Shown: positions 1,396 to 47,875 of the stretch, one piece after another
Numbering within the stretch: position 1 is the first letter of the stretch
Layout: every line of letters starts with the position of its first letter
From: an uncultured Gammaproteobacteria bacterium
Lineage (GTDB): Bacteria; Patescibacteriota; Patescibacteriia; UBA1558; S5-K13
Direction: 5' to 3'
DNA length: 64,000 bases
Assembly: GCA_964640635.1 (NCBI GenBank)
Contig: CAZXFD010000001.1
Location: 177,302-241,301 of the forward strand
Notes under the pieces: generated by a model
What the model saw: the letters and a program-made list of their open reading frames with translations, nothing else
Databases searched by the model: none
Told to the model about the DNA's origin: nothing
Translations under genes and position numbers: made by a program

Positions 1396-1585
1396 TTATT
1401 ATAAAATTTAGACGTTGAGGTCGTCCTGCTAAGCGGGACAGATGGCTCCACTCGAATATAAAATTTAATAAAATAATTTTAGTCAAAAACTTAAAAATGT
1501 AGTAAAATATAGATAGCTTTTAGTTGTTAGTATTTAGTATTTAGATTTCTCTAAACTCTAACCCCTAAATTCTAAACCCTAGTCC

Positions 1586-2266
1586 ATGATTAAACTCACA
1601 AGTGTTTCAAAATTTTATTCACCAAATGTCTGGGCACTAAGCAAAGTTTCTTTGCAAATACAAGCAGGAGAATTTGTTTCAGTGGTAGGACAATCAGGAA
1701 CCGGCAAAACAACGCTGGCTAAAATTTTGTTTGCAGAAGAGAAGCCTACAGAAGGTGAAATAGTTGTAGGTGGATGGAACATAACCAATATTAAACCAAG
1801 CGAAATTCCATACTTAAGACGTCAAATAGGATTTATATTTCAAGATTTCAAATTACTTCAGCGAAAAAATATTTATGAAAATATTTCTTTTGCAATGGAA
1901 ACTTGTGGCATGGATGCAAAAAAAATAGATTTAATAGTTCCACAAATTTTGAAAATAGTAGGACTTCAAAATAAAAAAGATGCATATCCATATCAATTAT
2001 CAGGTGGAGAGCAACAGAGAGCAGCTATTGCACGCGCACTCGTTCATCAGCCAAAGTTTTTGATAGCAGATGAGCCCACTGGTAATCTAGACTCAATAAA
2101 TACAAGAGAAATCATAGATTTGCTGGTAAGAATAAATAAATTAAATACAACAGTAATGCTCGTTACTCACAATCGCGATGTTGTAAATAGTTTGAATAAA
2201 AGAGTTATAACATTTGAATCAGGAAGAATTATCAGCGATCAAAACAATGGACGCTACATCCTGTAA
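1586..2266 (+). CDS. ftsE: Cell division ABC ATPase FtsE
   Basis: Walker A GQSGTGKTT, ABC signature LSGGEQQRAAIARAL and Walker B LIADEPTGNLD. Immediately upstream of ftsX. Confidence 0.9.
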   Translation: MIKLTSVSKFYSPNVWALSKVSLQIQAGEFVSVVGQSGTGKTTLAKILFAEEKPTEGEIVVGGWNITNIKPSEIPYLRRQIGFIFQDFKLLQRKNIYENISFAMETCGMDAKKIDLIVPQILKIVGLQNKKDAYPYQLSGGEQQRAAIARALVHQPKFLIADEPTGNLDSINTREIIDLLVRINKLNTTVMLVTHNRDVVNSLNKRVITFESGRIISDQNNGRYIL

Positions 2267-2327
2267 TTTATAATTTACAAATAGTAAATCAATTAATAAT
2301 TTCTAAATTGAAAATTGAAAATAATTT

Positions 2328-3248
2328 ATGTTTGTACAATTTACAAGAATACTAAAGTTTGCAATCCAGGGTTTTTTTAGAAACTTCTGGCTTTCTATTG
2401 CAAATGTTACTATTTTGACACTCACTCTTGTTGTTATAAATTTTCTTATAGTATTTAATCTTTTAACAATGAATGCCATTGACCTTGTTAAGGACAAGGT
2501 TGATATAAGCTTATATTTCAAGCAAGATATTAGTACTAACGATATAGAGCAGGTAAAACAAAAAATATCAAAATCTCCGGAAATTAAATCTGTTGAATAT
2601 ATATCATCAGAGAAAGCATTGCAAATTTTTCAAGAAAGACATGATGGAGAAGATATTAATAAAGCTATAGAAGATCTCAAAAAAGAAGATGATCAAATTT
2701 TTGCGGCAAGCATAAAAATAAAAGCAAAAGATGTTGCAATGTATGATCAAATATTAAAAGAGTTAAGAACTAGTCAATACAGCAATCTCTTTGAAATAGA
2801 TGAAAATCAATTTAAAGATTATTCTAGGATTACAGAGAGGCTAAATAGTATTTCATCTAAAGTTGAGCTTGTTGGATATATGGTTTCTTTGATATTTATC
2901 ATAATCACTCTTACGATGGTGTATAATTCTATAAAAATAGCGATATATACACATAGAGATGAAATTTACATAATGAAGCTTGTCGGTGCAAACACTAGTT
3001 TTATAAAAGGACCATTTTTTATAGAAATTTTAATGTCTAATATAATAGCACTTTTGGTGGTAATGGGTATATTTTATGCCTCTGCTGCCATAGCTCAGCC
3101 ATTTATAGATAGATTATTTGAGGGTTATTCGATAAGCTTAATAGGATATTTTAATGAAAATTTTATAGTGATATTTTTAGGGCAACTTATTATAAGCAGT
3201 GTATTTTCTGTATCAAGTAGCTATATTGCAATGAAAAAATACTTATAA
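2328..3248 (+). CDS. ftsX: Cell division permease-like protein FtsX
   Basis: Follows ftsE. Topology is N-terminal TM, a periplasmic domain and 3 C-terminal TM helices, as in the FtsX family. Confidence 0.8.
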   Translation: MFVQFTRILKFAIQGFFRNFWLSIANVTILTLTLVVINFLIVFNLLTMNAIDLVKDKVDISLYFKQDISTNDIEQVKQKISKSPEIKSVEYISSEKALQIFQERHDGEDINKAIEDLKKEDDQIFAASIKIKAKDVAMYDQILKELRTSQYSNLFEIDENQFKDYSRITERLNSISSKVELVGYMVSLIFIIITLTMVYNSIKIAIYTHRDEIYIMKLVGANTSFIKGPFFIEILMSNIIALLVVMGIFYASAAIAQPFIDRLFEGYSISLIGYFNENFIVIFLGQLIISSVFSVSSSYIAMKKYL

Positions 3249-3276
3249 AGATATTTTTGTTTGATATAATACAAAA

Positions 3277-3305
3277 AACATCCCACTAAATGAGATGTTT
3301 TTTTA
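3277..3305. terminator. Bidirectional intrinsic terminator between ftsX (+) and rpmA (-)
   Basis: Hairpin AACATC-cccactaaatga-GATGTT flanked by an A-run upstream and a T-run downstream. Confidence 0.6.
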
Positions 3306-3330: not shown

Positions 3331-3609
3331 TTATTTTGTTTTTACAGCAACGAAACCACGTTGTTTGATTTTGCCATCAAAGGCTTTTACTTTCTTTTTG
3401 GAAAATTTGATTACCCCAGCTTTTTTTGCATAAAGAGTATCATCAGATCCTCTTGCTACATTTTCTCCGGGATGATATTTTGTACCACGTTGTTTTATGA
3501 TAACTTGACCAGCTCTTGTTGTTTGGCCGTTTTGAAGTTTTACGCCCAGTCTTTTTGCTTTGGAATCTCGTCCCAGCGAGGTGGATCCACCAGCTTTTTT
3601 ATGTGCCAT
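3331..3609 (-). CDS. rpmA: 50S ribosomal protein L27
   Basis: [24 protein letters not shown]... is the canonical L27 N-terminus. Confidence 0.95.
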
Positions 3610-3694
3610 ATGATTAGTTTTTTAGAGTTTAGGCTTTAGTATTTGAAAACACTATAGACCAGCAACCTTTTTAATTTAAATTATTACTTTTCAA

Positions 3695-3801: not shown

Positions 3802-3896
3802 ATTATATATGATTAGAGTTTAAAAACCTTATTTTTTCATAAAATAATCATATTTTTTTGACCCCAATCATCTAATTTCCTAATCTTACTAATTAT

Positions 3897-4349
3897 ATGT
3901 ATTCCAAACAAGTATTAAAACATTTTCAAAGCCCAAAAAATCAAGGAAAGTTATTAAATCCAGATGCCGTTGGTCAGGTGGGTAATCCTGTTTGTGGAGA
4001 TATAATGAAGTTATATTTGAAAATAGACAAGAACAAGACAGATATAGGAAAAAGTAAAATACAAAGTATTAAATTTGAAACACTCGGTTGTGGAGCAGCA
4101 ATAGCATGTTCATCGGTAGTTACTGAAATTGCAAAGGGAAAAACCTTAGATTATGGACTTAATTTAGATAAAAAATTTGTATTAAAAGAACTTGGTGGTT
4201 TACCAGAAACAAAAGTTCATTGTTCAATGCTTTCTATTGAGGCGCTTAAAAAGGCAATTAATTCATATTTACAAAAAAATGATAGTTCAAAAAAAGATAG
4301 TCAAAAAATTAGTAAAAAATCCATTACTAGACCCAAAGTTAAAAAATAA
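3897..4349 (+). CDS. IscU/SufU-type Fe-S cluster scaffold (NifU N-terminal domain) with an odd Lys-rich tail
   Basis: Conserved Cys-containing motifs GNPVCGD, TLGCGAAIACSS and KVHCSMLSIEALKKAI. The tail NDSSKKDSQKISKKSITRPKVKK overlaps the next reading frame. Confidence 0.8.
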   Translation: MYSKQVLKHFQSPKNQGKLLNPDAVGQVGNPVCGDIMKLYLKIDKNKTDIGKSKIQSIKFETLGCGAAIACSSVVTEIAKGKTLDYGLNLDKKFVLKELGGLPETKVHCSMLSIEALKKAINSYLQKNDSSKKDSQKISKKSITRPKVKK

Positions 4350-4542: not shown

Positions 4543-4554
4543 TTTTATATTATT

Positions 4555-6098: not shown

Positions 6099-7139
6099 AT
6101 GTTTATTATAAAAATTTTTGTACTCACAACCCTTTCTTTTTTTGTGGCTTTTTTTATTACACCATTTATTACAAATATTTTATATAAATATAAACTTGGA
6201 AAACAGATAAGAGATGAGGGGTCTGCTCCAATTTTTTTTAGTTTACATAAAAAAAAAGCAGGTACTCCAACTATGGGAGGTATTATTATTTGGCTTACGA
6301 TGATTATTGTAATGGTTTTGTGTTATTTTATTTTTATATTTTTCCCAGAGAGCAAATTATCATCACTAAACTTTTTTTCTAGATCTCAAACATTGTTGCC
6401 ACTTGGAGTATTTATTGCATCAGCACTTGTTGGGTTATTAGATGATTATCTTGGTGTTAGAAAAATCGGTGAAAAAGGGGGTGGATTATCTATGAAATAC
6501 AAGCTTATTATTTATTTTGCTATAGCCACTATTGGTGCATTGTGGTTTTATTTTAAACTTGATTGGGATGTGCTTCATATTCCATTTGTTGGAAATTTCA
6601 ATATTGGGTGGTGGATTATTCCTATTTTTACTTTTGTTGTTGCGTCAACATCTTTTTCTGTAAATGAAACAGATGGACTAGATGGTCTTGTTGGAGGTTT
6701 GCTTCTTATCTGTTTTGCGGGGCTCGGGGTCATTTGTTTTTCTCAAGGAAAATATGATTTGGCAGCATTTTGTGGAGTAATAGTTGGATCTCTTATAACA
6801 TTTTTATGGTTTAACATACCACCAGCTCGTTTTTTTATGGGGGATACTGGATCTATGAGTCTTGGAATAACTCTTGGAATTATAGCAATGCTTACAAATA
6901 CACTTATTTATCTCCCAGTTATTGCATTTATTTTTATATTAGAATCATTGTCTGTGATAGTTCAGATGACTTCAAAAAAAATAAGAAAAGGAAAGAAAAT
7001 ATTTCAATCCACTCCAATTCACCATCACCTTGAAGCTATTGGATGGCCAGAGTCAAAAATTGTAATGAGGTCATGGCTCTTGGGAGGGGTTTTGATGGTT
7101 ATAACGCTTATTGTATATATGTTTGATAAGGGCATCTAA
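6099..7139 (+). CDS. mraY: Phospho-N-acetylmuramoyl-pentapeptide transferase MraY
   Basis: Polytopic membrane protein carrying the MraY motifs LDDYLGV, DGLDGL and PIHHHLE. Confidence 0.9.
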   Translation: MFIIKIFVLTTLSFFVAFFITPFITNILYKYKLGKQIRDEGSAPIFFSLHKKKAGTPTMGGIIIWLTMIIVMVLCYFIFIFFPESKLSSLNFFSRSQTLLPLGVFIASALVGLLDDYLGVRKIGEKGGGLSMKYKLIIYFAIATIGALWFYFKLDWDVLHIPFVGNFNIGWWIIPIFTFVVASTSFSVNETDGLDGLVGGLLLICFAGLGVICFSQGKYDLAAFCGVIVGSLITFLWFNIPPARFFMGDTGSMSLGITLGIIAMLTNTLIYLPVIAFIFILESLSVIVQMTSKKIRKGKKIFQSTPIHHHLEAIGWPESKIVMRSWLLGGVLMVITLIVYMFDKGI

Positions 7140-7264
7140 GATATTTATAATTTACTATTTTTAATTTAGCAATTGATTCATTATTTAAATATTGTGTAAT
7201 TGGAATTGAAAATAGTAAATAGAAATTCAATTGAAAATTGTGAATAGTAAATAGAAAATAATTT

Positions 7265-8596
7265 ATGTTGGATTTTAAAGGTAAAAAAGTTTTAATAATG
7301 GGATTAGGAACTATAGGAAAGGGTCTAAAGGATGCTTTATTTTTTCGAGAGCATGGTGCAATAGTTACAGTTTGTGATCTAAAAACAGTAAATGAATTAG
7401 GTGCTTCAATAGATGAATTAAAAAAATATAAAGATATTATATTGCATTTAGGACCACACCTTGAGTCTGATTTTATAGAAAATGATATTATAGTTAGAAA
7501 TCCAGATGTGAGATATGACTCTCCATTTTTGGCAATTGCACGACAAAACAACAAAAAGATTATCATGGACGAATCATATGCAGTCACACTTACAGATGCA
7601 ACTGTTATTGGTATTACAGGCACACGTGGAAAAACTACTACAACAACCCTTATTTATGAAATTTTAAAGAAAGCTGGATACGATGTATACATCTCAGGCA
7701 ATATTAGGGGGACTGCAACACTGCCACTTTTAGATAAATTAACAAAAAATTCTTATCTTGTTTTGGAATTATCTTCTTGGCAATTACAAGGTTTCGGGGA
7801 AGAAAAAACTTCTCCAGATTATTCTATTATCACAAATATTTATGAAGATCATTTAAATCGTGGCGGAGGAATGGATAATTATGTCGCTGATAAAAAGAAT
7901 ATTTATAAATATCAAGTCGAGTCAGATTTTTTATTTTTAAATAATGAAAAACAAGATAAATATCACACAGATTTTAAACAGGAAGCAAAATCTAAAATAA
8001 TATTTTTTTCTAAAAATGATTTAATTAATTATAAAACAAATCTTTTTGGTGATCATAATTTAGAAAATATTGCTGCGGCACGAGCACTTTGTATAGAGCT
8101 TGGAGTTGATGAGGGTATTATAAGAGGTGTTGTAGAGAATTTTATGCCAGTTGAATTTAGGTTAGAGAAAATTAGAGAAATAAATGGAGTTATTTTTATA
8201 AACGATGCAGCAAGTACTGCTCCTATTGCTGGAGTAAAAGCGCTCGAGGCTTTTGGTGATAAAGTACTTTTAATCTGTGGAGGAGCAACAAAGGGCTTGC
8301 CAATTGATGATTTTGCAAAAACAATTTGTGATCATTCAAAGCACGTCGCGCTCCTTAGCGGGACAGAAACAGAGGGTTTAAAAAACAAGATAAAAGAATT
8401 TGGTGGTGAAAATTTGATAATAGGTGTATTTGATAATTTTGAGATGGCTGTAGAGACTTTATATAAAAAAGCAAAGAGTGGTGATATTATTTTACTTTCT
8501 CCTGGATGTGCAAGCTTTGGTATGTTTAAGAATGAATTTGATAGGGGAGAACAGTTTAATAAGATTGTTAATGCGTTAATAGATAATTCAAAATGA
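7265..8596 (+). CDS. murD: UDP-N-acetylmuramoylalanine--D-glutamate ligase MurD
   Basis: Mur ligase P-loop GITGTRGKTTTT. N-terminal Rossmann segment GKKVLIMGLGTIGKG. Confidence 0.9.
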   Translation: MLDFKGKKVLIMGLGTIGKGLKDALFFREHGAIVTVCDLKTVNELGASIDELKKYKDIILHLGPHLESDFIENDIIVRNPDVRYDSPFLAIARQNNKKIIMDESYAVTLTDATVIGITGTRGKTTTTTLIYEILKKAGYDVYISGNIRGTATLPLLDKLTKNSYLVLELSSWQLQGFGEEKTSPDYSIITNIYEDHLNRGGGMDNYVADKKNIYKYQVESDFLFLNNEKQDKYHTDFKQEAKSKIIFFSKNDLINYKTNLFGDHNLENIAAARALCIELGVDEGIIRGVVENFMPVEFRLEKIREINGVIFINDAASTAPIAGVKALEAFGDKVLLICGGATKGLPIDDFAKTICDHSKHVALLSGTETEGLKNKIKEFGGENLIIGVFDNFEMAVETLYKKAKSGDIILLSPGCASFGMFKNEFDRGEQFNKIVNALIDNSK

Positions 8597-13184: not shown

Positions 13185-13340
13185 AAATTTTAAAGTATGA
13201 AGTATGAAGTTTGGAATATGAAATTTTAGTTTTTAGAGTATACTCGAATACTGAAATTAATTAGTCTTCGAGTGAAACCATGAGTTCGTCGAATGGTGGA
13301 GTCGAGAAGTTTAAGAATTCACGTTAAGTGGATTTTTTTA

Positions 13341-13372
13341 ATGAAAAAAGGACTCCGAGGAGTCCAAAATTT
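13341..13372 (-). terminator. Intrinsic terminator oriented for the minus strand, about 300 bp beyond the prs terminator
   Basis: Hairpin GGACTCC-ga-GGAGTCC. The minus-strand read is followed by TTTTTTCAT. Confidence 0.5.
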
Positions 13373-13651
13373 ACTTACTAAATATCAACAAACATTATAT
13401 AAAACTTTAACCTTGTTATAAGGCTTTGTTTAATTTGGTTATCAAATATATATTGCCAAAGTTTTAGTACAAGTTCATTGTTAATGTTTTTTTGTTTCTA
13501 AGTCTTCATAATTCTTCCTTTTGACCGATGGTCAATACCCTGTTTTTTTGCATTATTGCATTTGGTATAAATACCTACCATGGGTTGACTAGACTTATTG
13601 CTTCATAATTCCTCCTAAATCGTATTCTATAATTACATTAACTCATTTTTA

Positions 13652-13692
13652 TAAAAAAGGCAAGAAAAAAGGCCTCATTGATTTGGAGGCCT
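13652..13692 (-). terminator. Intrinsic terminator of prs
   Basis: Hairpin AGGCCTC-attgatttg-GAGGCCT. The minus-strand read is followed by TTTTTTCTTGCCTTTTTT. Confidence 0.7.
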
Positions 13693-13708
13693 AGGATTTA
13701 TAGTTTGG

Positions 13709-14752
13709 TTAGAATTTCATAAAAAGCTCACTAAGAGATTTTTCTAAGTGAATTCTTAAGATGCATTCTGCTAAAAATTCTGCTGGATCTAGGACGGTTA
13801 TTTTTTTAGGTAACCTATTTTCAAATGGTATCGTATCAACAAATATAACTTCGTCTGCACAGGATTTTTCAATATTCTGCATTGCTTCTGGCGTTAAGTC
13901 TGGATGTACTGCTGCAATAGTTATTGATTTTGCACCATGCATTTTGAGTATTTCAAGAGCCGCCATGATAGTAGAAAAAGATTGAATCATATCGTCAAAA
14001 ATCCAAACATTTTTATCTTTTACATCTCCAAGTACACGACTTCTTGTGGTATCTATGCATTTTTTTTCATGATCCTGAATCTTTTGGACTAGACATATAT
14101 CTTTAATGCCAGTTATTTTTGATATGGCTTCAATTCTTTTGGCAGATCCAATATCGGGACTACACAACACAACATCGTTAGGGTTCCTTTTTTGTAATTC
14201 TTTGATGAGAAGAGCCATTAAATAAACTCTATCATTGACCTTGAAAAAGTCAGCGGTTGCAGAATTATGGATATCACATAGTAGTACACGACTGGTTCCC
14301 GACTGATTTACTCTATTTGCAGCAACTTTTAGACTTCTGGATTCTCTTGGTATTGTTTTCCTATCTTGTTTAGTAAAACAAAACCAAGGGAAAACACCAG
14401 TGATTCTTTCAGCAGAATCTCTAATACAGTCTACTAGTAATTCATATTCTTCTAGTAGACTATAGTTATTTTTGTAATGCACACTTTGTATGATAAAGAC
14501 ATCACAACCTCTTACATTCTTAAGGGCTCGGGCATAGGGTTCTCCATTTTTAAATCTTTGTATGAATGTTGGTACGAGTTCAACTTTGTAATTAACCTTT
14601 TTAGATAATTCAAGAGCTATTCTTTCCGCAAGGGCAAGATGACCAGTACCACTGATTAGTCTAATTTTTTTACAATATGGTTTTTCTAAGTTAAGAAAAT
14701 CCAATATTTTCATAGCGAGTTTTTTTAGCAAGCTCTTAAAGTGTTTCAGCAT
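13709..14752 (-). CDS. prs: Ribose-phosphate pyrophosphokinase (PRPP synthetase)
   Basis: Motifs KIRLISGTGH..LAERIA and RFKNGEPYARALKNVRGCDVFIIQS. Start set at the ATG preceded by a GGAGGAT Shine-Dalgarno, not at the longer upstream ATG. Confidence 0.85.
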   Translation of the reverse strand: MLKHFKSLLKKLAMKILDFLNLEKPYCKKIRLISGTGHLALAERIALELSKKVNYKVELVPTFIQRFKNGEPYARALKNVRGCDVFIIQSVHYKNNYSLLEEYELLVDCIRDSAERITGVFPWFCFTKQDRKTIPRESRSLKVAANRVNQSGTSRVLLCDIHNSATADFFKVNDRVYLMALLIKELQKRNPNDVVLCSPDIGSAKRIEAISKITGIKDICLVQKIQDHEKKCIDTTRSRVLGDVKDKNVWIFDDMIQSFSTIMAALEILKMHGAKSITIAAVHPDLTPEAMQNIEKSCADEVIFVDTIPFENRLPKKITVLDPAEFLAECILRIHLEKSLSELFMKF

Positions 14753-14934
14753 TTTATCCTCCCAAGATAATGTAGTTTTATACAACTATTCTATCTAATA
14801 GCTTTTATTTGTCAACCGGTTATATAACTGATTTATTAGAGATGGTATGAATAGGTCATATAAATTGGTAACCTTGCCGATAAAGGGTATATTTGATAAG
14901 ATAAAATAAGCAATTAATTAATAACAAAAAACAA

Positions 14935-15228: not shown

Positions 15229-15399
15229 ATTTAATTTAATAAATAAATTCGAAATAAGAATATCTAAATACTAAACAAATTTGAAATAAGAAATATTAAA
15301 TTAAGCAAACAGTATTTGAGTAATTTGTTTGTGATTTATTGTTTGATGTTTATTATTTGTTTATAATTTAGAATTTAGACTTTAGAATTTTTGAACATT

Positions 15400-20300: not shown

Positions 20301-20311
20301 AAGCTAAAAAT

Positions 20312-20671
20312 ATGAAAAAAATTACTACAATTAAAGATGCTCAAAAATTAGTAAAAGAATTTGCAAAGAAAAATAATTGGAAAGATATCCCAAATGTTGA
20401 TAAATTTGACCATATCCACGAAGAACTTATTGAAATGTCACAATACCTAAGATATAAAACGGAGAAGCAGAGAATAAAAGAAATTAAAGTTAATAAACAA
20501 ATTTTTACTGACGGAATAGGGGACTTATTTTTTGCAATTTGTAGGTTAGCAAATCAATTGAATGTTGATATTGAAAGTGCATTTAATATAGTAAGCGGTG
20601 AAATTTTCAAAAAATATGACAACAAAAACAAAGAAATAAACATTTCTTCAAAGAGGAAAAAAATAAAATGA
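20312..20671 (+). CDS. MazG-like nucleotide pyrophosphohydrolase (all-alpha NTP-PPase)
   Basis: HEELIEMSQYL...DGIGDLFFAICRLANQLNVDIESAF matches the MazG/YpjD-type EExxE...D motifs. Confidence 0.65.
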   Translation: MKKITTIKDAQKLVKEFAKKNNWKDIPNVDKFDHIHEELIEMSQYLRYKTEKQRIKEIKVNKQIFTDGIGDLFFAICRLANQLNVDIESAFNIVSGEIFKKYDNKNKEINISSKRKKIK

Positions 20672-23472: not shown

Positions 23473-23550
23473 TTTTCCTCCCTTATTTCTCTTTATGAGA
23501 ATTTATATATTAATATATCATATATATTACTATTTGTCAAATATGCCATA

Positions 23551-23579
23551 TTGACACTTTTTATATATCTGCTATACTT
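23551..23579 (+). promoter_or_regulatory. Sigma-70-like promoter of the rplJL operon (TTGACA, 17 nt spacer, TATACT)
   Basis: ttgacactttttatatatctgcTATACT lies about 200 nt upstream of rplJ. Confidence 0.55.
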
Positions 23580-23666
23580 ATTTCGTAATCCACAGACAGC
23601 GAGCGTCGACTGAAAACGGCTTAATTTCTCGCCAAGGATAAAAGATTATTTTTTAGTCTATTATTT

Positions 23667-23693
23667 CTGCGGATAACGCAGTTTTTTTATTTT
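23667..23693 (+). promoter_or_regulatory. L10 leader attenuator-like hairpin plus U-tract
   Basis: CTGCG-gataa-CGCAG followed by TTTTTTTATTTT, inside the long rplJ 5' leader. Confidence 0.45.
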
Positions 23694-23782
23694 AGTATAA
23701 AGTTAAATATCGCGAGATTATAAAGAAAAAACCAACTTTATATACTTTCGACTTTAGACTTTTTAACTTTTAACTTAACATT

Positions 23783-24301: not shown

Positions 24302-24336
24302 TAATAATAGGTATTAGTTGTTAGTAGTTAGTATTT

Positions 24337-24378
24337 AGAAAATAAATACTAAACACTAAAAACTAAACACTAAAAACT
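24337..24378 (+). repeat. Tandem G-free repeat (ACTAAACACTAAAA)x2.5 forming the rplL 5' leader
   Basis: Seen directly. Similar CTAAA-rich leaders precede ftsE, mraZ, dnaJ and rpmA. Confidence 0.7.
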
Positions 24379-24384
24379 AAACAT

Positions 24385-24786
24385 ATGACAGAAAAAAAAG
24401 ACGTAATTGTGCCAGAAAAATTTCAATCAATAGTTTCAGAGATTGAAAAGATGTCCGTATTAGACCTTTCAGAATTGGTTTCAATTTTGGAAGAAAAATT
24501 TGGAGTAAGCGCAGCAGCTCCAATGATGATGGGTGCTATGCCAGCAGCAGCTGGGGCAGCTGAGATTGAAGAAAAATCATCATTCGATGTTGAACTTACT
24601 GATTGTGGCGCAAGCAAAATCAATGTTATTAAGGCAATAAGAGAAATTACTCAACTTGGTCTTAAAGAAGCAAAAGATATTGCTGACGGAGCACCAATGA
24701 TGGTTTTAGAAGCTGCTGACAAAGCAAAGGCAGAAGATGCAAAAAAGAAGATAGAAGAAGCTGGTGGAAAAGTTACATTAAAATAA
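24385..24786 (+). CDS. rplL: 50S ribosomal protein L7/L12
   Basis: Ala-rich hinge and the C-terminal domain [21 protein letters not shown]...KVTLK. Confidence 0.9.
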
Positions 24787-27140: not shown

Positions 27141-27234
27141 AATAAAAAATACACTTGTCTGTTAGCTAAAAATATTATACTATAAATATAAGAATTTGGG
27201 AACTATAATTTGATATACACAACAAAAAAAGATT

Positions 27235-28283: not shown

Positions 28284-28350
28284 ATATTTATTTGTCATTT
28301 GTAATTTAGAATTTGGAATTTATCTGTAATTTGTCATTTGTAATTTAGAA
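28284..28350 (+). repeat. Direct repeats TTTGTCATTTGTAATTTAGAATTT(G/A)G, two copies, in the 5' leader of the flavoprotein gene
   Basis: Seen directly. G-poor TTTAGA-type leader. Confidence 0.5.
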
Positions 28351-28405
28351 TTTAGCAAATTTTGTAATTTCAAATATCAAAAGAATAAAAGAAAGAGTAT
28401 CTATT

Positions 28406-29679: not shown

Positions 29680-29895
29680 TTATTCCACCTTTTGTTGTAG
29701 TTCATTAAAATTCTTGATGAAGACTTTGAAATCTTCTTCGTCCTTAATACAAATATAGGCAATGTCATCTGCATCTAGTTTTCCATCTGGAAATTGACTC
29801 TCGAATTTTTTTTCAAATTCGAATTTTTTCTCAGGTGGAATATTCAGAACAAATCTTGCGCAACGACAGGACTCTTCAATTGTGACTTCTTCCAT
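29680..29895 (-). CDS. Small hypothetical protein (71 aa)
   Basis: Shine-Dalgarno AGGGAGA upstream on the minus strand. No homolog recognised. Confidence 0.45.
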   Translation of the reverse strand: MEEVTIEESCRCARFVLNIPPEKKFEFEKKFESQFPDGKLDADDIAYICIKDEEDFKVFIKNFNELQQKVE

Positions 29896-29936
29896 TTATT
29901 CTCCCTTGTTTTATGTTTTCGTGCTATTGAATCTTT

Positions 29937-30355
29937 TCAGAAAATCTTCAAAGGCTTTTGCTCTTTTTCTGCTATTGTAGCAATGTCATTTATAGAAAGT
30001 TTGTCATATGGAAATTTTTTGCCAAAACTTGTTCTAAAGTTTTTGTTGGATGTGACAGAAATGCTTAGATTAAAGCATATGAAGTGTTCTAGTTTTTTGA
30101 TTTTTATTGATTTTGTACCGCGCTCTTCTTTGAACCCATCAACAAAGCTTATGAATAGATCTCTTTTGTCCCAAGGAATTGTTATAGTACAAAACTTTAT
30201 TCCAAAAATAAATTCTCCGCCGGAAAATTTTCCCTTGAAGTCCTTTTCAAATAAATCTTTAAAACCACCGTCTTTAAAGGTCGCATGGAAATAAGCTAAA
30301 TCTTTTTTCCATTGGGCTTTAGTGCTACGTGAGATTGTGTTTCATTAGTTTTCAT
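29937..30355 (-). pseudogene. Frameshifted gene: GGAGGA Shine-Dalgarno plus ATG, 19 codons, then a 135-codon ATG-less continuation in the -1 frame across an A_AAA_AAG heptamer
   Basis: Manual minus-strand translation gives MKTNETQSHVALKPNGKKI*. Slipping -1 at AAAAAAG (plus coordinates 30303-30309) continues as DLAYFHATFKDGGF...KPLKIF. Confidence 0.45.
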
Positions 30356-30460
30356 TTTTCCTCCTACTATAGTTTATTAATAATGAATATTATATATTTT
30401 TTAGTGTTTTGTCAATTTATGAAAGAAAGATGCTATAATAAATGTATTATTAAATAGAGT

Positions 30461-32916: not shown

Positions 32917-34065
32917 TTATTGAAACATTGGTTTTGTGCTTAAATCGGCACTAAACGGAGATGGACCTTTTTCTAGTAAAATAGCATTACTTGGATTGTC
33001 TGGATTGAAGTAGCTATTATGCCAGAAAATATATTTGAGCCAATTTTCTCCGCTTCCAAGGTCCATGAGGGCTTTTGCATAGTTTGCTTGCCCCACGTAA
33101 TTAGTAACTTTGCCTGAGAGCGTATTTGCATCCCATGCCCAGCCAACGTATCCATTTGTAAGAGGATATTTGACGCTAGGGCAGGATGTCTCTGCAATTA
33201 CAAATGGAACACCCGTTTGATTGTAAATCTGCTTGCAAAATCCAAATATTGGACTAAGAGCGGTTTTTAGGGAACTTAGGCTAGGGATTTCTTCATCTGA
33301 TAATCCTGGATACATTGTCATGCCAAGGATATCAAAGTTTGAGCAAAAGTTATTACTTACTTGATAGAATTCACAATCTGGGAATTGTTGTGAAGATCTA
33401 TTATATGCTCCACCATTAAAGTAATAACTCACTGATCCACTGTAAATAGTTTTTATGGAATCAACTAGTGCGTGCCAATAGGCATCTTTATCTGGTGTTG
33501 TGAGTAAGATGTTCTCTTGTCCAATATTGAGAATATCAATTTCCTGAAATTCACAAAATTGGGCATCGATTCTTATCTTATTCCAGAAGTTTGTGAAGAA
33601 ATATTGAGTATTTGATGGGTTAAAATTTCCCCTCCAAATTTCTCCATATCCATTATACCATCCAGACCCACGTCCAATAGGACATATTTCAATAGCATAT
33701 TGGACTTTCATCCCATAGCTTTTTGCCCTGGTAGTCATTTGGGCAAGCTCAATATATGAATAATTGCTCCATCCAGGATCTTCAGCGGGAAATTCTTCGT
33801 GAGGGTAATATGAGTTAATCCCGTCGAAATAGTAAACTTTGTAAAAAGTTACTTGTCCAATGCCACGACTAGCAAGTGAGTCTATTCTTGCTAAAATGTT
33901 TGGTAAGGCACCATTTTGATAGTAATCACCGTAGTATTTTCTATCAAAGTTTACTCCAAACTTATTTCTTCCATCTTGTGGATCAATATTTACGTCTACC
34001 GGATTTTTTGATGTGCATGACGTAAAAAATAGCAACAGTAATATGGCACAAAATATATTTCTCAT
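32917..34065 (-). CDS. Lipoprotein, putative TIM-barrel glycoside hydrolase-like
   Basis: Shine-Dalgarno GGGAGGAAAAA plus signal peptide with lipobox LLFFTSC. Aromatic-rich catalytic-domain-like sequence; family not resolved. Confidence 0.45.
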   Translation of the reverse strand: MRNIFCAILLLLFFTSCTSKNPVDVNIDPQDGRNKFGVNFDRKYYGDYYQNGALPNILARIDSLASRGIGQVTFYKVYYFDGINSYYPHEEFPAEDPGWSNYSYIELAQMTTRAKSYGMKVQYAIEICPIGRGSGWYNGYGEIWRGNFNPSNTQYFFTNFWNKIRIDAQFCEFQEIDILNIGQENILLTTPDKDAYWHALVDSIKTIYSGSVSYYFNGGAYNRSSQQFPDCEFYQVSNNFCSNFDILGMTMYPGLSDEEIPSLSSLKTALSPIFGFCKQIYNQTGVPFVIAETSCPSVKYPLTNGYVGWAWDANTLSGKVTNYVGQANYAKALMDLGSGENWLKYIFWHNSYFNPDNPSNAILLEKGPSPFSADLSTKPMFQ

Positions 34066-34362
34066 TTTTTCCTCCCAAATTGATTTTATTGTGAACATTG
34101 TATACTACAATATATTTGTAAAAAAAGCAAGTGATGTGATTATGTAGATAAATGGTTTATTTTTAGTTTTATTTTATTGGGTTTAGAGATTTTAGGCGTC
34201 AATAAAACATGTTTTTTACTTAACTTATCCACAGATAACGAGTGTTGAAAAAAGGTCTTTAGTGGTGTATAATATAAGTAAGGTGGTGAGAAGTGGAGAA
34301 TGTTGGGGATAACTATTTTCTCTCTACTAAACGTTAAACACTAAAAACTAAACTCTAATTCA

Positions 34363-34794
34363 ATGTTTATAGGTGAATACAATCACATAATAGATGAAAA
34401 AGGAAGATTGGCATTGCCAATTAAGTTTAGAACTGAATTTAAATCTGGGGCAGTTGTAACACGAGGACTCGACAACTGTCTTTTTGTTTTCACAAAAAAA
34501 TCATGGAACGAACTTGCTGATAAATTATCAAAGTTACCAATATCACAATCAAAGTCTCGTGCTTTTGCAAGACTTATGCTTGCTGGTGCAATGGACGTGA
34601 GGCTCGATAGTCAAGGAAGAATTATATTACCAGAATATTTAAGAGTTTTTTCAAAATTAAATAAAAAAGCAATTGTTGCGGGCGTCTTCAATAGACTAGA
34701 GATTTGGGATGAGAATTTGTGGAATATATATAAAACAGACGTTGAAAATAAATCAATTGAAATAGCAAATGAATTAGGTGATTTAGGAATCTAA
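34363..34794 (+). CDS. mraZ: Transcriptional regulator MraZ
   Basis: MFIGEYNHIIDEKGRLALPIKFR... with a duplicated MraZ half-domain. Confidence 0.9.
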   Translation: MFIGEYNHIIDEKGRLALPIKFRTEFKSGAVVTRGLDNCLFVFTKKSWNELADKLSKLPISQSKSRAFARLMLAGAMDVRLDSQGRIILPEYLRVFSKLNKKAIVAGVFNRLEIWDENLWNIYKTDVENKSIEIANELGDLGI

Positions 34795-40306: not shown

Positions 40307-40423
40307 TATTTATTGATTTTTTATAAAAAGCCGTTCTTTATTGGGCGGTTTTTTCTTTTACTTTATATGTGCTAAAATTTAAATAGGATTAGTATGTTCT
40401 AACCCTACTAACCAACTAATTTA

Positions 40424-40439
40424 CCCCGCCATGGCGGGG
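40424..40439. repeat. Perfect GC palindrome CCCCGCC-at-GGCGGGG, ending 12 nt before the desulforedoxin ATG
   Basis: Seen directly. The hairpin loop contains an ATG. Confidence 0.7.
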
Positions 40440-40451
40440 CAAGCTAACCAT

Positions 40452-40586
40452 ATGAACGTACAAAAAGAAGGAGAAAAGTATTATTGTGAAATTTGTGGAA
40501 ATGAAGTAACTGTAACAAAAGCTGGTGGAGGAGAGCTTATTTGTTGCGGAAAGCCCATGGAATTATTGAAGGAAGTGACTGAATAG
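40452..40586 (+). CDS. Desulforedoxin-like small metal-binding protein (44 aa), absent from the ORF track
   Basis: [39 protein letters not shown] has the CxxC...CC spacing and flanks of desulforedoxin and the Dfx N-domain. Confidence 0.65.
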
Positions 40587-40680: not shown

Positions 40681-40795
40681 TAATTTTTCTCGCGAAGCGG
40701 GATCCTGCAATAATTATAAAATATATGGAGACGTGGCCAGTTTCCTAATTTTCTAACCCTACTAACTTTCTAACCTCACTAACCCTCTAACCTCC

Positions 40796-40824
40796 TTGAC
40801 ACTATTTATTATTTTGCTATACTA
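40796..40824 (+). promoter_or_regulatory. Sigma-70-like promoter of the hrcA heat-shock operon (TTGACA, 16-17 nt spacer, TATACT)
   Basis: ttgacactatttattattttgcTATACT lies directly upstream of CIRCE. Confidence 0.55.
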
Positions 40825-40827: not shown

Positions 40828-40854
40828 TTAGCACTCGTCTCTTATGAGTGCTAA
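40828..40854 (+). promoter_or_regulatory. CIRCE operator TTAGCACTC-N9-GAGTGCTAA overlapping the hrcA start codon
   Basis: Perfect match to the CIRCE consensus. The hrcA ATG lies inside the element. Confidence 0.9.
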
Positions 40855-42190: not shown

Positions 42191-42206
42191 AAAGGAGATC
42201 AAAATT

Positions 42207-42617
42207 ATGAAATTAGTAAGATGGAATCCTTTTCTTGATGAGGGTGGTGACTGGGGAATGCTAAGTCCTTTTACAGGGGCAAATGCATTTGTGCCATCAC
42301 TTGATATTTATCAAGACAAAGACAACGTTATTGCAAAGGCAGCTTTGCCTGGAATTGACCCAGAAAATGTCAATATTTCTATTGAAAATGATATTTTGAC
42401 AATTGAAGGAACAATGAAAAAAGAATCAGAAGTTGATGAAAAAGATTATTACAGAAAAGAAATAAGTTCAGGATCATTTCACAGAAGTATGATTTTGCCA
42501 ACTAGCGTAAATGGTGATAAGGCAAAAGCAGAGTTTGCAAATGGAATACTAGAGATAACAATGCCAAAGAAAGAAGAAGTAAAACCAAAAACAGTTAAAA
42601 TTGAAATTAAGAAATAA
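42207..42617 (+). CDS. Hsp20/alpha-crystallin small heat shock protein
   Basis: Alpha-crystallin domain ...DNVIAKAALPGIDPENVNISIENDILTIEG...AEFANGILEITMPK. Confidence 0.9.
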   Translation: MKLVRWNPFLDEGGDWGMLSPFTGANAFVPSLDIYQDKDNVIAKAALPGIDPENVNISIENDILTIEGTMKKESEVDEKDYYRKEISSGSFHRSMILPTSVNGDKAKAEFANGILEITMPKKEEVKPKTVKIEIKK

Positions 42618-44420: not shown

Positions 44421-46352
44421 ATGAGCAAAATATTAGGAATTGACTTAGGAACAACAAACAGTGCAATGAGTATTATTGAGGGTGGAAAGCCAGTTATCTT
44501 GGAAAACAAAGAAGGCGCAAGAACTACTCCATCAATAATCGCAGTTGCAAAATCAGGTGAACGTCTTGTAGGACTTCTTGCAAAACGTCAAGCAGTTATT
44601 AACCCTGACAACACTTTATTTTCTATCAAACGTCTTATTGGTAGAAGATTTGATGACAAAGAAGTTCAAAGCGATATTAAGACATTGCCTTATAAAATCA
44701 AACAAGCTGGTGAGGGTGTAAAAATTACTCTTGGAGACAAGGATTATTCACCTCAGGAAATCTCAGCAATGATTTTACAAAAATTAAAAGCAGATGCAGA
44801 AGAAAAACTAGGTGAAAAGATAGAAGAAGCTGTTATTACGGTTCCAGCATACTTTGATGACGCACAACGTCAAGCAACAAAAGATGCAGGAGAAATCGCA
44901 GGACTAAAGGTCCGAAGAATTATCAATGAACCTACTGCAGCAGCTTTTGCATATGGTTTTGACAAGAACAAAGACCAAAAAATCGTTGTATACGATTTAG
45001 GCGGTGGAACATTTGATATTTCAGTACTTGATATTGGTTATGACGCAGAAACAAAGCAATCTACCGTAGAAGTAAAGTCCACTAATGGTGATACTCACTT
45101 AGGTGGAGATGACTTTGACCAAAAGATTATTCACTTTATTATTGATGAATTCAAAAAAGACCAAGGAATTGATCTTGCAAATGACAAAACCGCTTTACAA
45201 CGCTTGAAGGAGTCTGCAGAAAAGGCAAAGATAGAGCTTTCTACTTCAATGGAAACTGAAATTAATCAACCATTTATTACAACAGACGCTAGTGGTCCAA
45301 AGCACTTGGTCATGAAAATGACAAGAGCAAAATTAGAAGAACTTGTTGGAGAATTAGTTGATAAAACAATGATTCCTTGCCAAAAGGCATTAGACGATGC
45401 AGGACTTAAAAAAGAAGATATAAATGAAGTAGTGCTTGTCGGTGGTATGACTCGTATGCCATATGTCCAAAAGAAGGTAGAAGAATTCTTTGGTAAAAAG
45501 CCAAATATTACAGTAAATCCAGATGAAGTTGTAGCAATGGGTGCAGCAATTCAAGCAGGACAATTTGAAGGGTCTATGGGTAGTAAAGAAGTATTGCTTC
45601 TTGATATCACTCCACTTACTCTTGGAATTGAAACTCTTGGGGGTGTTATGACTCCACTTATTGAAAAAAATACAACTATCCCTACAGCAAAGAGCCAAAT
45701 TTTCTCAACCGCAGCAGATAGTCAGACTTCTGTAGAAATTCATATTCTTCAAGGTGAAAGACAATTAGCGCAGGATAATAAGACACTTGGCAGATTTATC
45801 TTATCAGGTATTCCACCAGCACCTCGTGGTATTCCTCAAGTTGAAGTTAGCTTTGATATTGATGCAAACGGAATTTTGAATGTAAAAGCAGTAGACAAGG
45901 CAACAGGAACTGAGCAGAAAATTACCATCACAGCATCAAGTGGTCTTTCAAAAGAAGAAATAGAAAAAATGAAGCAAGAAGCAGAAGCTCATGCTGAAGA
46001 AGATAAGAAAAAGAAAGAAGAAATAGAAGTAAACAATAATGCAGAAAGTATCATTTATAATACTGAAAAAATGCTAAAAGACGCTAGCGGAAAAGTTGGT
46101 GCTGACGTAATTACAAAAGTAGAAGACAAACTTAAGGAATTAAAAGATGCAAAAACTGCAAACAATGTTGAAGATATGAAAAAGAAAATGGAAGAAATGA
46201 ATGAAGTTGTTCAAGAAATTGGAAAAGCAATGTATGCTCAGCAACAACAGGCTCAACCAAATGGAGATGCGCAAGCAAACCCAGAAACTTCAGAAGAGCC
46301 AAAAAAAGACGAGCCAGTTGAAGCAGAATTTGAAGATGTTAAAAAGGAATAA
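44421..46352 (+). CDS. dnaK: Chaperone DnaK (Hsp70)
   Basis: [17 protein letters not shown] and the Glu/Lys/Ala-rich C-terminal lid. Confidence 0.95.
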
Positions 46353-46444
46353 GTTAAAAGTCAAAAAGTCATAAAGTTAAAAAGCAATAACCAAAACTTT
46401 ATAACTTTATGACTTAGTACTTTATAAACTTTATAACTAAATCT

Positions 46445-46741
46445 ATGACAGAACAAAATCAACAAGTGGAATTAAAAATCTCAGACAATATTCCTGGTGG
46501 TGAATATGCAAATGCAATGCAAATTTCTCATAATCAAGATGAATTTCATATGATATTTATGAATTTATTGCCACCTACTGGAAAAGTAGTATCAAAGGTT
46601 ATTACAAGTCCAGGACATATGAAAAGAATCATCGGTGCTATGCAAGAAAATCTCAAAAAATATGAAGATCAATTTGGGGAGATAAAAGAATCTTCAAGCC
46701 CAGAAAAAACAATCGGTTTTGCAGATAGAAAAGAATCTTAA
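46445..46741 (+). CDS. DUF3467 domain protein
   Basis: GEYANAMQISHNQDEFHMIFMNLLPP...VVSKVITSPGHMKRIIGAMQENLKKYEDQFGEI. Confidence 0.6.
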   Translation: MTEQNQQVELKISDNIPGGEYANAMQISHNQDEFHMIFMNLLPPTGKVVSKVITSPGHMKRIIGAMQENLKKYEDQFGEIKESSSPEKTIGFADRKES

Positions 46742-46786
46742 ATCAAAATCGCTAAATACTAAAAACTAAACTCTAAACACTAATAA

Positions 46787-47875
46787 ATGTCCAAAGACTA
46801 CTATAAAACCCTGGGTCTTGATAAAAATGCCACAGAGGATCAAATAAAAAAAGCCTTTAGAAAACTTGCCCACGAACATCATCCAGATAAAGCAAATGGA
46901 AAAGATGAAAAATTCAAAGAAATAAACGAAGCTTATCAAGTTTTAGGCAACAAAGACAAAAGAGCTAAGTATGACCAATTTGGTAGTGCTGATTTTGGTT
47001 CTGGCTCAGGATTTGGTGGAGGAGGCTATAGTGGAAACTGGCAAGATTTTTCTGGAGGGTTTAGTGGTGGAAATTCAGATTTTGGATTCGGTGATTTAGG
47101 TGATATTTTTGGGGATATTTTTGGTGCAGGCGGACGAACTACAAAAAAAGGGTCAAGTAGAGGACGAGATGTTGAAATATCTATTGAAATATCATTTGAA
47201 GAAGCGGTTTTTGGGGTAGAAAAAATAGTAAATCTTAAGAAAAATGTTCAATGTGAAAAATGTAATGGTGCCGGTGGTCATGGAAGCAAAACTTGCTCAA
47301 GGTGTAATGGTACAGGACGTATTCATATTCAACAAAATACTATTTTTGGATCTTTTGCTTCAGCGGCACAATGCCCAGAGTGTGATGGTTCAGGGCAGTT
47401 ATTGAAAGAAGTCTGTGGTCATTGTAGTGGCAATGGTTACTATAGTGGTAGTGAAGAAATCAAAATAAAAATTCCAGCAGGAATTGACAATGGTCAATCA
47501 CTCAGACTTCAAGGAAAAGGTGAGCCAGGTAAAAAATCAAAATCAGTGGGGGATTTGTATGTAAGAATAAAAGCACAACCTAGTCGTGAGTTTCAAAGGG
47601 ATGGGTATGATATAAAAAGTTCTGTAAAAGTAAAATATTCCCAACTTATTTTGGGAGATAAAATAAATGTAAAAACACTAGATGGAGATGTGAAGCTCAA
47701 AATTCCTAGCTCTACATCGAGTGGAAAAGTTTTTATATTAAAAGATAAAGGCGTACCAAAATTAAATAGTCGTGGTCGTGGAGATCACTTTGTAAAGGTT
47801 ATATTAGATATGCCAAGTTCTTTAAGTCATGAACAAAAAAAGTTAATAGATGAATTAGCAAAGAGAGGGTTGTAG
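46787..47875 (+). CDS. dnaJ: Chaperone DnaJ
   Basis: J-domain HPD, Gly/Phe-rich linker and four CxxCxGxG zinc-finger repeats. Confidence 0.9.
   Translation: MSKDYYKTLGLDKNATEDQIKKAFRKLAHEHHPDKANGKDEKFKEINEAYQVLGNKDKRAKYDQFGSADFGSGSGFGGGGYSGNWQDFSGGFSGGNSDFGFGDLGDIFGDIFGAGGRTTKKGSSRGRDVEISIEISFEEAVFGVEKIVNLKKNVQCEKCNGAGGHGSKTCSRCNGTGRIHIQQNTIFGSFASAAQCPECDGSGQLLKEVCGHCSGNGYYSGSEEIKIKIPAGIDNGQSLRLQGKGEPGKKSKSVGDLYVRIKAQPSREFQRDGYDIKSSVKVKYSQLILGDKINVKTLDGDVKLKIPSSTSSGKVFILKDKGVPKLNSRGRGDHFVKVILDMPSSLSHEQKKLIDELAKRGL

Follow-up and report, generated by a model that had tools for sequence, protein, structure and literature searches.

About one gene in ten on a 64-kb stretch of DNA from an uncultivated bacterium of the Patescibacteria (the Candidate Phyla Radiation, CPR), including genes for ribosomal proteins, chaperones and cell division, has a CTAA box in place of a classical ribosome-binding site. 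This box coexists with a conserved minority of genes that have Shine-Dalgarno (SD) sequences and with a majority that have only A/U-rich, AUG-poor leaders. Before several genes it is repeated in tandem as a CTAAA-type array, and from the sequence patterns described below we propose, with about even confidence, that these CTAAA leaders would be in-phase 7-nt reiterations of a lineage-specific, position-locked mRNA element of a non-SD kind.

The window, by which we mean the whole 64-kb stretch, has a G+C content of 30% and 6.3 kb of non-coding DNA (~10%). We compared it with a sample of close relatives (loci L207-L216, ~100 kb, retrieved through their RplL homologs, RplL being 76-97% identical) and with a broad sample made up of the 80 best DnaK loci from a species collection (1.28 Mb, DnaK 62-80% identical), nearly all of them from metagenome-assembled genomes of Patescibacteria; the DnaK of the window was also matched on Logan contigs of run SRR10083293. 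Positional counts were made on 169 genes, 70 of the window with curated starts and 99 of the close relatives. The names that a sequence-only reading of the window had given to ftsE, rplL, rplJ, mraZ, dnaJ, secA, hsp20, prs and rpmA (Pfam Ribosomal_L27) were upheld by NCBIfam and Pfam profiles, which also support ftsX, nifU (NifU TIGR03419), murD and hrcA. The profile alignments of the named genes begin at residues 1-4 of their open reading frames (ORFs), with the FtsE profile TIGR02673 aligned over 1-214.

The principal new finding is the fixed distance of the box to the start codon. CTAA begins exactly at position -8 in seven of the 70 window genes (rpmA, nifU, the gene at 20312, rplL, mraZ, rsmH and the DUF3467 gene) and at -9 to -12 in none of them, while dnaJ alone has it at -7, where ftsE reads CTAG. 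The peak at -8 has a Poisson P of 2e-4, or 0.008 when multiplied by 37 positions, and 19 of the 43 CTAA copies in leaders fall into the -8 phase modulo 7 (P = 1.4e-5), with upstream copies at -15 and -22; the rplL leader has all three (-8, -15 and -22). The close relatives carry CTAA at -8 in 13 of 99 genes (P = 6e-9), and over all 169 genes it is the top position-specific 4-mer (20 observed vs 2.6 expected, P = 3e-12), followed by GGAG at -9 (11 vs 0.57 expected). The core of the motif is UAA, since TAA at -7 is found in 48 of the 169 genes, where the average for other positions is 12.7; in the window, these are true stop codons of the upstream gene in 3 of 17 cases. CTAA at -8 is thus carried by 10-13% of genes and TAA at -7 by 24-28%, each short of a majority, and the relatives also show YUAA or AUAA at -8. 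More generally, position -1 is T in 59% of the 169 starts, and A occupies -5 in 67% and -3 in 59% of them. The box also occurs without an array: single-copy CTAA boxes precede the gene at 20312, the rplL of L208, L209 and L215, and the genes L212-4978 and L214-15496.

The two most sharply placed motifs exclude each other. In the 20 genes that carry CTAA at -8, neither GGAG nor GAGG occurs anywhere in -18 to -3, and GGAG in upstream regions is confined to -9/-10; since CTAA begins at -8 and GGAG at -9/-10, both motifs end at -5. The canonical GGAGG-type SDs reported earlier for prs, hsp20 and the genes at 23472, 29895, 30355, 34065 and 52157 are indeed present, all seven having at least 4 nt of AGGAGG that end 4-13 nt before the start:

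14759-14763, minus strand: SD GGGAG(G) of prs, ATG at 14752, with a promoter at 14815-14788
23478-23482, minus strand: SD GGGAGG of a gene for 127 amino acids (aa), ATG at 23472; kept in L208
29901-29905, minus strand: SD GGGAG of a 71-aa gene, ATG at 29895
30360-30365, minus strand: SD AGGAGG of a frameshifted gene, ATG at 30355
34072-34076, minus strand: SD GGGAGG of a GH113-like gene, ATG at 34065
42193-42197, plus strand: SD AGGAG of hsp20, ATG at 42207
52163-52168, minus strand: SD AGGAGG of a 117-aa gene, ATG at 52157, with a promoter at 52213-52185

The orthologs of the SD genes in the close relatives keep their SDs. About two thirds of genes have neither CTAA nor an SD, and across the 80 Patescibacteria loci SD use is 12-19% of genes compared with 7% at an internal control position. 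The earlier proposal that two modes of initiation coexist thus stands insofar as there are two distinct, mutually exclusive and sharply placed signals, with no gene having both; because of the large share of genes without either signal and the low SD use throughout the clade, the arrays are not a simple replacement of the SD.

Several further features of the SD class can be recorded. In the window strong GGAGG motifs are unevenly distributed by strand, being found in 6 of 10 minus-strand genes and 1 of ~60 plus-strand genes (Fisher P = 1e-5); in the 80 relatives this trend is weak (24% vs 17%, P = 0.057), and relatives also have a plus-strand SD gene. Near-consensus promoters, some with TG-extended -10 boxes, precede prs and the genes at 23472, 30355 and 52157, with leaders of 20-35 nt. 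The gene at 29915-30355 (minus strand), which has a perfect AGGAGG, stops after 19 codons beside an A-run, and its ortholog is intact, at 146-155 aa, in L208, L209 and L211; the truncation is a frameshift or an assembly error. A further perfect AGGAGG at ~13590-13620 (minus strand) lies 4 nt 5' of a mini-ORF, ATG AAG CAA TAA, which is followed by a 27-aa ORF. It is located in the convergent spacer 13185-13708 (524 nt), which also contains a bidirectional terminator at 13350-13365 and AAGTATG/TTTAG arrays at 13193-13243.

The G-free CTAAA-repeat leaders described in the sequence-only reading are real at ftsE, rplL, mraZ and dnaJ, both by direct reading and by run statistics. G-free runs extend up to the ATG over 37 nt at ftsE (1545-1581), 48 nt at rplL (24339-24386), 31 nt at mraZ (34334-34364) and 37 nt at dnaJ (46752-46788), and Tandem Repeats Finder (TRF) reports a 7-nt tandem unit in 3.6-6.1 copies at these four genes, the period-7 arrays being CTCTAAA x4.7, AAACTAA x6.1, ACTAAAC x4.7 and CTAAACA x4.6, respectively. 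The claim that all the listed leaders consist of C, T and A only fails for rplJ, whose leader contains G, and for secA, where the repeat is in reverse orientation. CTAAA-type arrays lie directly 5' of the ATG of ftsE, rpmA, nifU, rplL, mraZ, dnaJ and a 51-aa gene. All seven plus-strand clusters of at least three CTAA copies are non-coding and six of the seven stop 4-11 nt short of a start codon; the single minus-strand cluster lies 5 nt from the start of rpmA. Start-adjacent CTAA arrays are forward in seven cases and reverse in one, with the minus-strand gene rpmA having a minus-strand array. The three-unit pattern CTAAANNCTAAANNCTAA, allowing up to 2 mismatches, matches 28 times in the window compared with 2.9 +/- 1.6 in shuffled sequences. 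TRF also finds numerous other 7/8-nt arrays with different units in the intergenic DNA of the window, and an Rfam scan of the window places no RNA family over the arrays. The arrays and boxes of the window are as follows:

1519-1548, plus strand: TTTAGTA x4.4 (TRF), free of C, the 5' arm of the hairpin in the leader of ftsE
1549-1581, plus strand: CTCTAAA x4.7, the G-free 3' hairpin arm, 4 nt from the ftsE ATG at 1586
3614-3639, minus strand: CTAAA-type array, 5 nt from the rpmA ATG at 3609, CTAA at -8
3861-3896, plus strand: G-free CTAAT-type leader of nifU, ATG at 3897, CTAA at -8
7204-7260, plus strand: C-free AAATAGT-type period-7 array, 4 nt from the murD ATG at 7265
15360-15390, plus strand: TTTAGAA x4.4, the CTAAA family reversed, 9 nt from the probable secA ATG at 15400
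20304-20307, plus strand: single-copy CTAA box at -8 of the gene at 20312-20671, with a GC hairpin before the box
23744-23776, plus strand: ACTTTAG/TTTAACTT arrays, not G-free, 6 nt from the rplJ ATG at 23783, TTAA at -8
24314-24338, plus strand: TTAGTAG x3.6, the C-free 5' arm of the rplJ-rplL hairpin
24339-24383, plus strand: AAACTAA x6.1, free of G, the 3' arm with a single-stranded tail of 12 nt that together reach the rplL ATG at 24385
28286-28354, plus strand: ATTTGTA/ATTTAGA arrays in reverse orientation, 52 nt from the gene at 28406, very variable in length among relatives
34326-34358, plus strand: ACTAAAC x4.7 in the 5' untranslated region (5'UTR) of mraZ, 4 nt from the ATG at 34363, CTAA at -8
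40397-40419, plus strand: CTAAC-type array, 11 nt from the 51-aa Desulfoferrodoxin_N gene at 40431
40745-40792, plus strand: CTAAC-type period-8 array upstream of the hrcA promoter at 40796-40823, outside the leader
46351-46384, plus strand: AAAAGTCA x3.6, the 5' arm of the dnaK-DUF3467 hairpin
46395-46438, plus strand: AACTTTAT x5.5, the 3' arm, 6 nt from the DUF3467 ATG at 46445, CTAA at -8
46752-46783, plus strand: CTAAACA x4.6, filling the DUF3467-dnaJ spacer, 3 nt from the dnaJ ATG at 46787, CTAA at -7

The start of secA is probably ATG 15400 rather than TTG 15391. Some array sequences are shared between loci: the 19-mer ACTAAAAACTAAACTCTAA is identical at 34340-34358 and 46758-46776, in the otherwise unrelated leaders of mraZ and dnaJ, and the 16-mer TTCTAACCCTACTAAC at 40397-40412 and 40751-40766, on either side of the Desulfoferrodoxin_N gene (40431-40586). 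The mraZ gene of L209 is preceded by the CTAAC array type that the window has at dfx and hrcA, and thus array families occupy different loci in related genomes.

Comparison of the spacers among close relatives separates what is conserved from what is not. In nine distinct relatives the rplJ-rplL spacer measures 30-105 nt, and its arms consist of AAACTAA in the window, L207 and L211, of CCTAAAA in L212, and of GCTGAAA in L213, L214 and L216; L208-L210 have a short GC hairpin followed by the single unit aaaaaactaaacatATG, and L215 has no hairpin. Despite this turnover of unit, length and hairpin, eight of the nine retain CTAA at -8 of rplL. Seven of the nine have a hairpin whose end lies 11-13 nt 5' of the rplL AUG, with unrelated stems that include the short GC hairpin, and the stem of L211 is preserved through one A-U to G-U change. 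In the spacer between the TsaD gene and the HI0933-like gene and in the mraZ leader, arrays grow, shrink or are replaced among relatives; their presence and length vary at 91-97% RplL identity, and the dnaJ array is missing in L002, while arrays are identical across three assemblies/runs of one study. Given this rapid turnover together with the retention of CTAA at -8, the arrays behave like simple-sequence repeats that evolve fast on the basis of a conserved unit close to the start. The divergent spacer at 27141-27234, between a 748-aa gene (minus strand) and a 189-aa gene (plus strand), is near-invariant in L207-L214 (...tatttatagtataatatttttagctaacagacaagtgta...), and neighboring spacers turn over.

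At ftsE, rplL and dnaK-DUF3467 a complementary arm free of C stands 5' of the G-free one, and the two form a hairpin, with predicted folds of -13.6 kcal/mol (z = -2.1) for the ftsE leader at 1505-1600, -19.8 kcal/mol (z = -4.45) for rplL and -22 kcal/mol (z = -4.7) for dnaK-DUF3467. Leaders with a single arm barely fold (dnaJ -1.2 and rplJ -1.7 kcal/mol), and most CTAA leaders lie at ~0 to -2 kcal/mol. Spacers with arrays are not more structured than other spacers (z < -2 in 43 of 72 vs 130 of 250), and sense and antisense strands fold alike. The idea that hairpins generally end 11-13 nt 5' of the AUG across the genome was rejected, because their distances to the AUG show no peak and the pattern is confined to the rplL orthologs. 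The two-arm hairpins were also rejected as intrinsic terminators, as their stems are AU-rich, lack a U-tract and do not appear on terminator-like lists, while GC terminators occur elsewhere in the window.

To place the arrays on transcripts we used a sigma-70 scan, and since its total matches are at chance level, only 11/12 matches in spacers were considered. The following promoters are predicted upstream of array-led genes:

3722-3695, minus strand: rpmA
7123-7151, plus strand: murD
23551-23578, plus strand: rplJ
34245-34273, plus strand: mraZ

The predicted promoters put the arrays of rpmA, nifU, murD, rplJ and mraZ inside 5'UTRs of 80-200 nt, whereas those of rplL, dnaJ and DUF3467 are intercistronic. 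The motif was rejected as a -10 box of leaderless mRNAs, as it abuts the ATG. Leaders are generally depleted in start codons relative to what their composition predicts (NTG 34 vs 45.9 +/- 5.4; ATG 12 vs 22.1 +/- 4.1), with 21 of 45 leaders free of NTG compared with 7 of 45 antisense sequences, and the CTAA arrays are the extreme of this depletion, lacking start codons and G runs and offering UAA in all three frames.

Other putative regulatory elements accompany some of these leaders. Downstream of the rplJ promoter, at 23572-23696 (plus strand), lies a match to the Rfam family L10_leader, slightly below the gathering score (43.1 vs 44 bits, E = 0.0013), that includes a terminator-like hairpin and T-run at 23667-23681; it probably represents an attenuator for L10/L12 autoregulation, here in a CPR genome. 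A perfect CIRCE operator, TTAGCACTC-N9-GAGTGCTAA at 40828-40854 (plus strand), overlaps the hrcA start codon at 40844 and lies downstream of the hrcA promoter, TTGACA-16-TATACT at 40796-40823. Over and after the mraZ promoter, at 34262-34308 (plus strand), the direct repeats GTGGTG, GTGGTG, GTGGAG and TTGGGG, spaced by 21, 10 and 10 nt, look like an MraZ operator; this stretch is kept in L209, where the rest of the leader is different.

In the window and the 80 broader loci, arrays of at least three copies have a period of 7 in 164 cases, of 6 in 36 and of 8 in 42. The period-7 arrays are intergenic in 124 of 164 cases, while intergenic DNA makes up only ~14%, and their density per kb is highest in co-directional spacers (1.22), followed by divergent (0.80) and convergent ones (0.38) and by coding sequence (0.09). 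Each genome reuses its own family, as 22.5% of unit pairs within a locus but only 9.1% between loci differ by at most 1 mismatch. An array lies within 20 nt of 17 of the 182 starts verified by homology, and eight of these arrays are G-free compared with one that is C-free. Freedom from G as a general rule was nevertheless rejected, because relatives have G-containing GCTGAAA arrays before rplL. Arrays or hairpins of the 8-nt AACTTTAT type recur in L009 (12753-12825), L048 (10128-10182), L014, L019, L026 and L038, and in L009 and L048 the hairpin again lies in the dnaK-dnaJ region, downstream of dnaK. Scanning metagenomes for (CTAAANN)4 recovered mostly eukaryotic telomere-type CCCTAAA repeats among the matches listed; the non-telomeric matches, at least 45, come from mixed organisms and lie beside ORF starts in forward orientation in seven cases and in reverse in six, which is uninformative. 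A few low-GC metagenome contigs have the same layout as the window (L173 12572-12618, L114 4265-4297), for example a (CTAAAAA)7 array that ends 4 nt short of the ATG of an ORF for 370 aa.

On our preferred reading, the CTAAA leaders would contain an element with the consensus R-CUAA-W-N-A-U-AUG, in which CUAA at -8 to -5 would occupy the slot that GGAGG (-9 to -5) holds in a separate, conserved minority of genes. The start-proximal unit would be the functional part, serving the 30S subunit as a signal for contact or positioning in SD-independent initiation, while the upstream copies would come and go through replication slippage. Such copies may be tolerated or mildly favored because they form a leader without AUG, GUG or UUG, without SD-like G runs and with UAA stops in all three frames. 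We infer this role in translation initiation from the position of the box, its exclusivity with the SD, its conservation and its orientation; CUAA might be read by a ribosomal protein, by the end of the rRNA tail or by some other factor, and some direct contact with the ribosome is plausible given the fixed register.

A number of observations weigh against this reading. The window is a small part of a genome, the starts of the relatives' genes come from an automatic caller, and the rplL and rplJ orthologs inflate the relatives' count, the box being found in ~10 distinct gene families. The 80 broader Patescibacteria loci show no peak at -8 (11 of 1192, a flat distribution), so the box is lineage-specific, and in these loci arrays adjoin starts no more often than stops (41 vs 54). 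Several arrays fit poorly: that of hrcA is located 5' of its promoter, those of secA and of 28286-28354 are reversed, and those at 13193-13243 lie in a convergent spacer. Finally, the energy needed to open the region from -18 to +12 is the same for array-led genes as for others (medians of 6.0 and 5.6 kcal/mol, P = 0.88). With this equal opening energy, and with three of the arrays being halves of hairpins, the suggestion that the repeats act as unstructured enhancers gains no specific support.

The arrays might instead be neutral slippage products of weakly constrained, AT-rich spacers, without any function, heptamers being the commonest long simple-sequence repeats of prokaryotes, with position and orientation arising as by-products; heptamer slippage was proposed by Mrazek 2007, as cited in PMC4679880. 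The dominance of period 7 in mostly intergenic DNA, the variation of units between genomes and loci, the expansion, contraction and replacement of arrays at 91-97% RplL identity, the absence of the dnaJ array in L002, the arrays in convergent spacers and the unimproved accessibility of start regions all agree with it. Yet this seems unlikely to us; against it stand the fixed -8 register with its phase-locked copies, the presence of CTAA at -8 in eight of nine divergent rplL spacers, the single-copy boxes without an array, the preponderance of G-free over C-free arrays at homology-verified starts, and a forward bias that tracks the strand of the gene rather than that of replication. An improbable alternative is that the arrays are multivalent sites for a genome-specific trans-factor (a small RNA, or a protein of the cold-shock-domain, S1-domain, KH or CsrA-like type) that would control a post-transcriptional regulon. 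The reuse of one unit family at several loci of a genome, the 19-mer and 16-mer shared between leaders, the appearance of the CTAAC array at mraZ in L209 and at dfx/hrcA in the window, and the growth and stress housekeeping functions of the downstream genes would fit such a regulon, and the same hypothesis with the same candidate proteins was put forward for the TAACTGA repeats of Beggiatoaceae (PMC4679880). However, no candidate protein was found, units at the same gene are very different among relatives, arrays are present in either orientation and as arms of hairpins, and at several genes a single copy is enough.

Quite unlikely, in our estimate, is that CUAA pairs with the extreme 3' end of 16S rRNA, for example with a tail ...CCUCCUUA(G), as a weak mini-SD. 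CUAA and GGAGG have -5 as their common end and never occur together, as though both used one slot on the platform, the motif is specific in both sequence and position, and some SD genes read TAAGGAGG or TAAGGGAGG, which would be compatible with a tail ending in UUA; usage of the flanks of the anti-SD also varies between lineages (PMC10783764). No rRNA gene was found by the Rfam scan of the 64-kb window, and the only 16S captured, that of the distant Patescibacteria relative L059, has the canonical tail CACCUCCUUUCU, with no UUAG in its last 90 nt and no UUGG near the tail. A helix of 3-4 bp with A-U pairs would in addition be very weak, the relatives have YUAA or AUAA at -8, and G-containing GCTGAAA units take the same place in some of them. 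If the lineage's own 16S tail were CCUCCUUUCU, without a complement to CUAA, this would favor recognition by a protein or an indirect one. That the hairpin is the functional unit, with AU-rich stem-loops acting as processing sites, stabilizers, thermosensors or attenuators and single arms being decayed hairpins, is very unlikely: the significant folds at rplL, dnaK-DUF3467 and ftsE, the stems near the rplL AUG in seven of nine relatives, the stem kept in L211 and the AACTTTAT-type hairpin downstream of dnaK in L009 and L048 speak for it, while most CTAA leaders lack a partner arm, spacers with arrays do not exceed others in structure, sense and antisense fold equally well, no genome-wide peak of hairpin-AUG distances exists and no U-tract follows the stems. 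The least probable explanation is a role at the level of DNA, in which TAGAAT or TAGTAT of the TTTAGxx arrays would be phased hexamers resembling a -10 box, or the arrays would be UP-like elements or sites for nucleoid or transcription proteins. It draws on the hrcA array that abuts the -35 of a near-consensus promoter, on the reverse arrays that contain TAGAAT or TAGTAT, on the presence of both orientations and on the heptamer repeats of Nostoc, which affect promoter use (bioRxiv 10.1101/2022.06.06.494920); it conflicts with an orientation bias and register that relate to the ATG and not to promoters, with the short intercistronic spacers that hold the dnaJ and rplL arrays, and with promoter-like matches at chance frequency.

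The closest known parallel to the position-locked CTAA element and its arrays is provided by the TAACTGA repeats, direct repeats of a heptamer known from marine Beggiatoaceae and from some Cyanobacteria and Bacteroidetes (MacGregor 2015, PMC4679880). Both are 7-nt tandem repeats, mostly intergenic and forward, ending a few nt before starts that mostly lack an SD, and both occur in SD-poor genomes, at ribosomal-protein genes, with one favored unit per genome and stop codons inside the repeat. The genome with TAACTGA repeats keeps a canonical anti-SD, and the role of the repeats is not established, with S1, Csp and CsrA having been proposed (PMC4679880). The window differs in its unit, CTAAAxx (CTAAACA, ACTAAAA, CTCTAAA), in the placement of CTAA at -8 compared with a TAACTGA repeat ending at -2, in a Patescibacteria host with many unrelated units coexisting, in the frequent hairpins of complementary arms (BOGUAY has one inverted case only) and in the single-copy, position-locked box. 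Thus, the CTAAA arrays are of the same kind as the TAACTGA leader repeats without belonging to the same sequence family. Motifs of a non-SD kind are known from Bacteroidetes as well, as the A-rich 'group B' motif of GeneMarkS-2 in Bacteroides, ~9 nt from the start (PMC6028130), and as the Kozak-like contexts and AUG depletion in leaders of Flavobacterium and other SD-less Bacteroidetes (PMC6847099). These resemble our data in the fixed short distance to the start, the rarity of the SD, the start-codon-poor leaders and the A-rich -2 to -6 region, but not in the invariant C-U, the restriction to 10-13% of genes, the in-phase tandem copies and the conserved SDs alongside; the surveys of GeneMarkS-2 group B and Flavobacterium do not cover this CPR lineage. 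The short tandem repeats (STRR) of cyanobacteria, such as the TTTTGAA/TTCAAAA heptamers near start codons of Nostoc (bioRxiv 10.1101/2022.06.06.494920), are likewise genome-specific, non-coding, near promoters or starts, present in both orientations and suspected of a regulatory role; they belong to another phylum, have other units and are not known to have a fixed ATG register.

As in canonical SD initiation, the minority class of the window has GGAGG at -9/-10, a spacing of 4-6 nt and conservation among relatives, whereas the CTAA leaders have no complementarity to CCUCC. The omega leader of tobacco mosaic virus (TMV) is a G-poor, repeat-containing, unstructured and S1-dependent enhancer that supports initiation without an SD and is not known to have a position-locked box. 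Our arrays resemble it as G-free repeat leaders with little structure, and differ in that their openness does not exceed that of other leaders. No rpsA, the gene for S1, was seen among the genes of the 64-kb window. Searches of a literature library brought up no article that deals with such repeats, or with the use of SDs, in Patescibacteria. What is already known is a poorly understood leader type of sulfur bacteria and cyanobacteria, of which CTAA is a lineage-specific variant; what is new is the host clade, the fixed register of CUAA, the in-phase amplification, the arrangement in hairpins and the equally sharp SD class alongside.

A bolder extension of the position-locked reading, which we offer tentatively and regard as doubtful, is that CUAA would be a second ribosome-binding signal in the platform slot of the SD helix, read by the 16S 3' end or by a CPR-specific feature of the ribosome, with in-phase arrays serving as a slippage-driven rheostat that tunes initiation and with the heptamers of Beggiatoaceae and cyanobacteria being the same phenomenon with other boxes. 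How start codons are chosen without an SD is still an open question, and Patescibacteria make up a large share of bacterial diversity. The locus offers a candidate signal, CUAA at -8, together with natural multi-copy and single-copy variants and an internal comparison class of GGAGG genes. The finding connects this lineage to the unexplained heptamers before the start codons of Beggiatoaceae and cyanobacteria, and lineage-specific boxes of this sort could help gene callers built around SD or A-rich motifs to place CPR starts.

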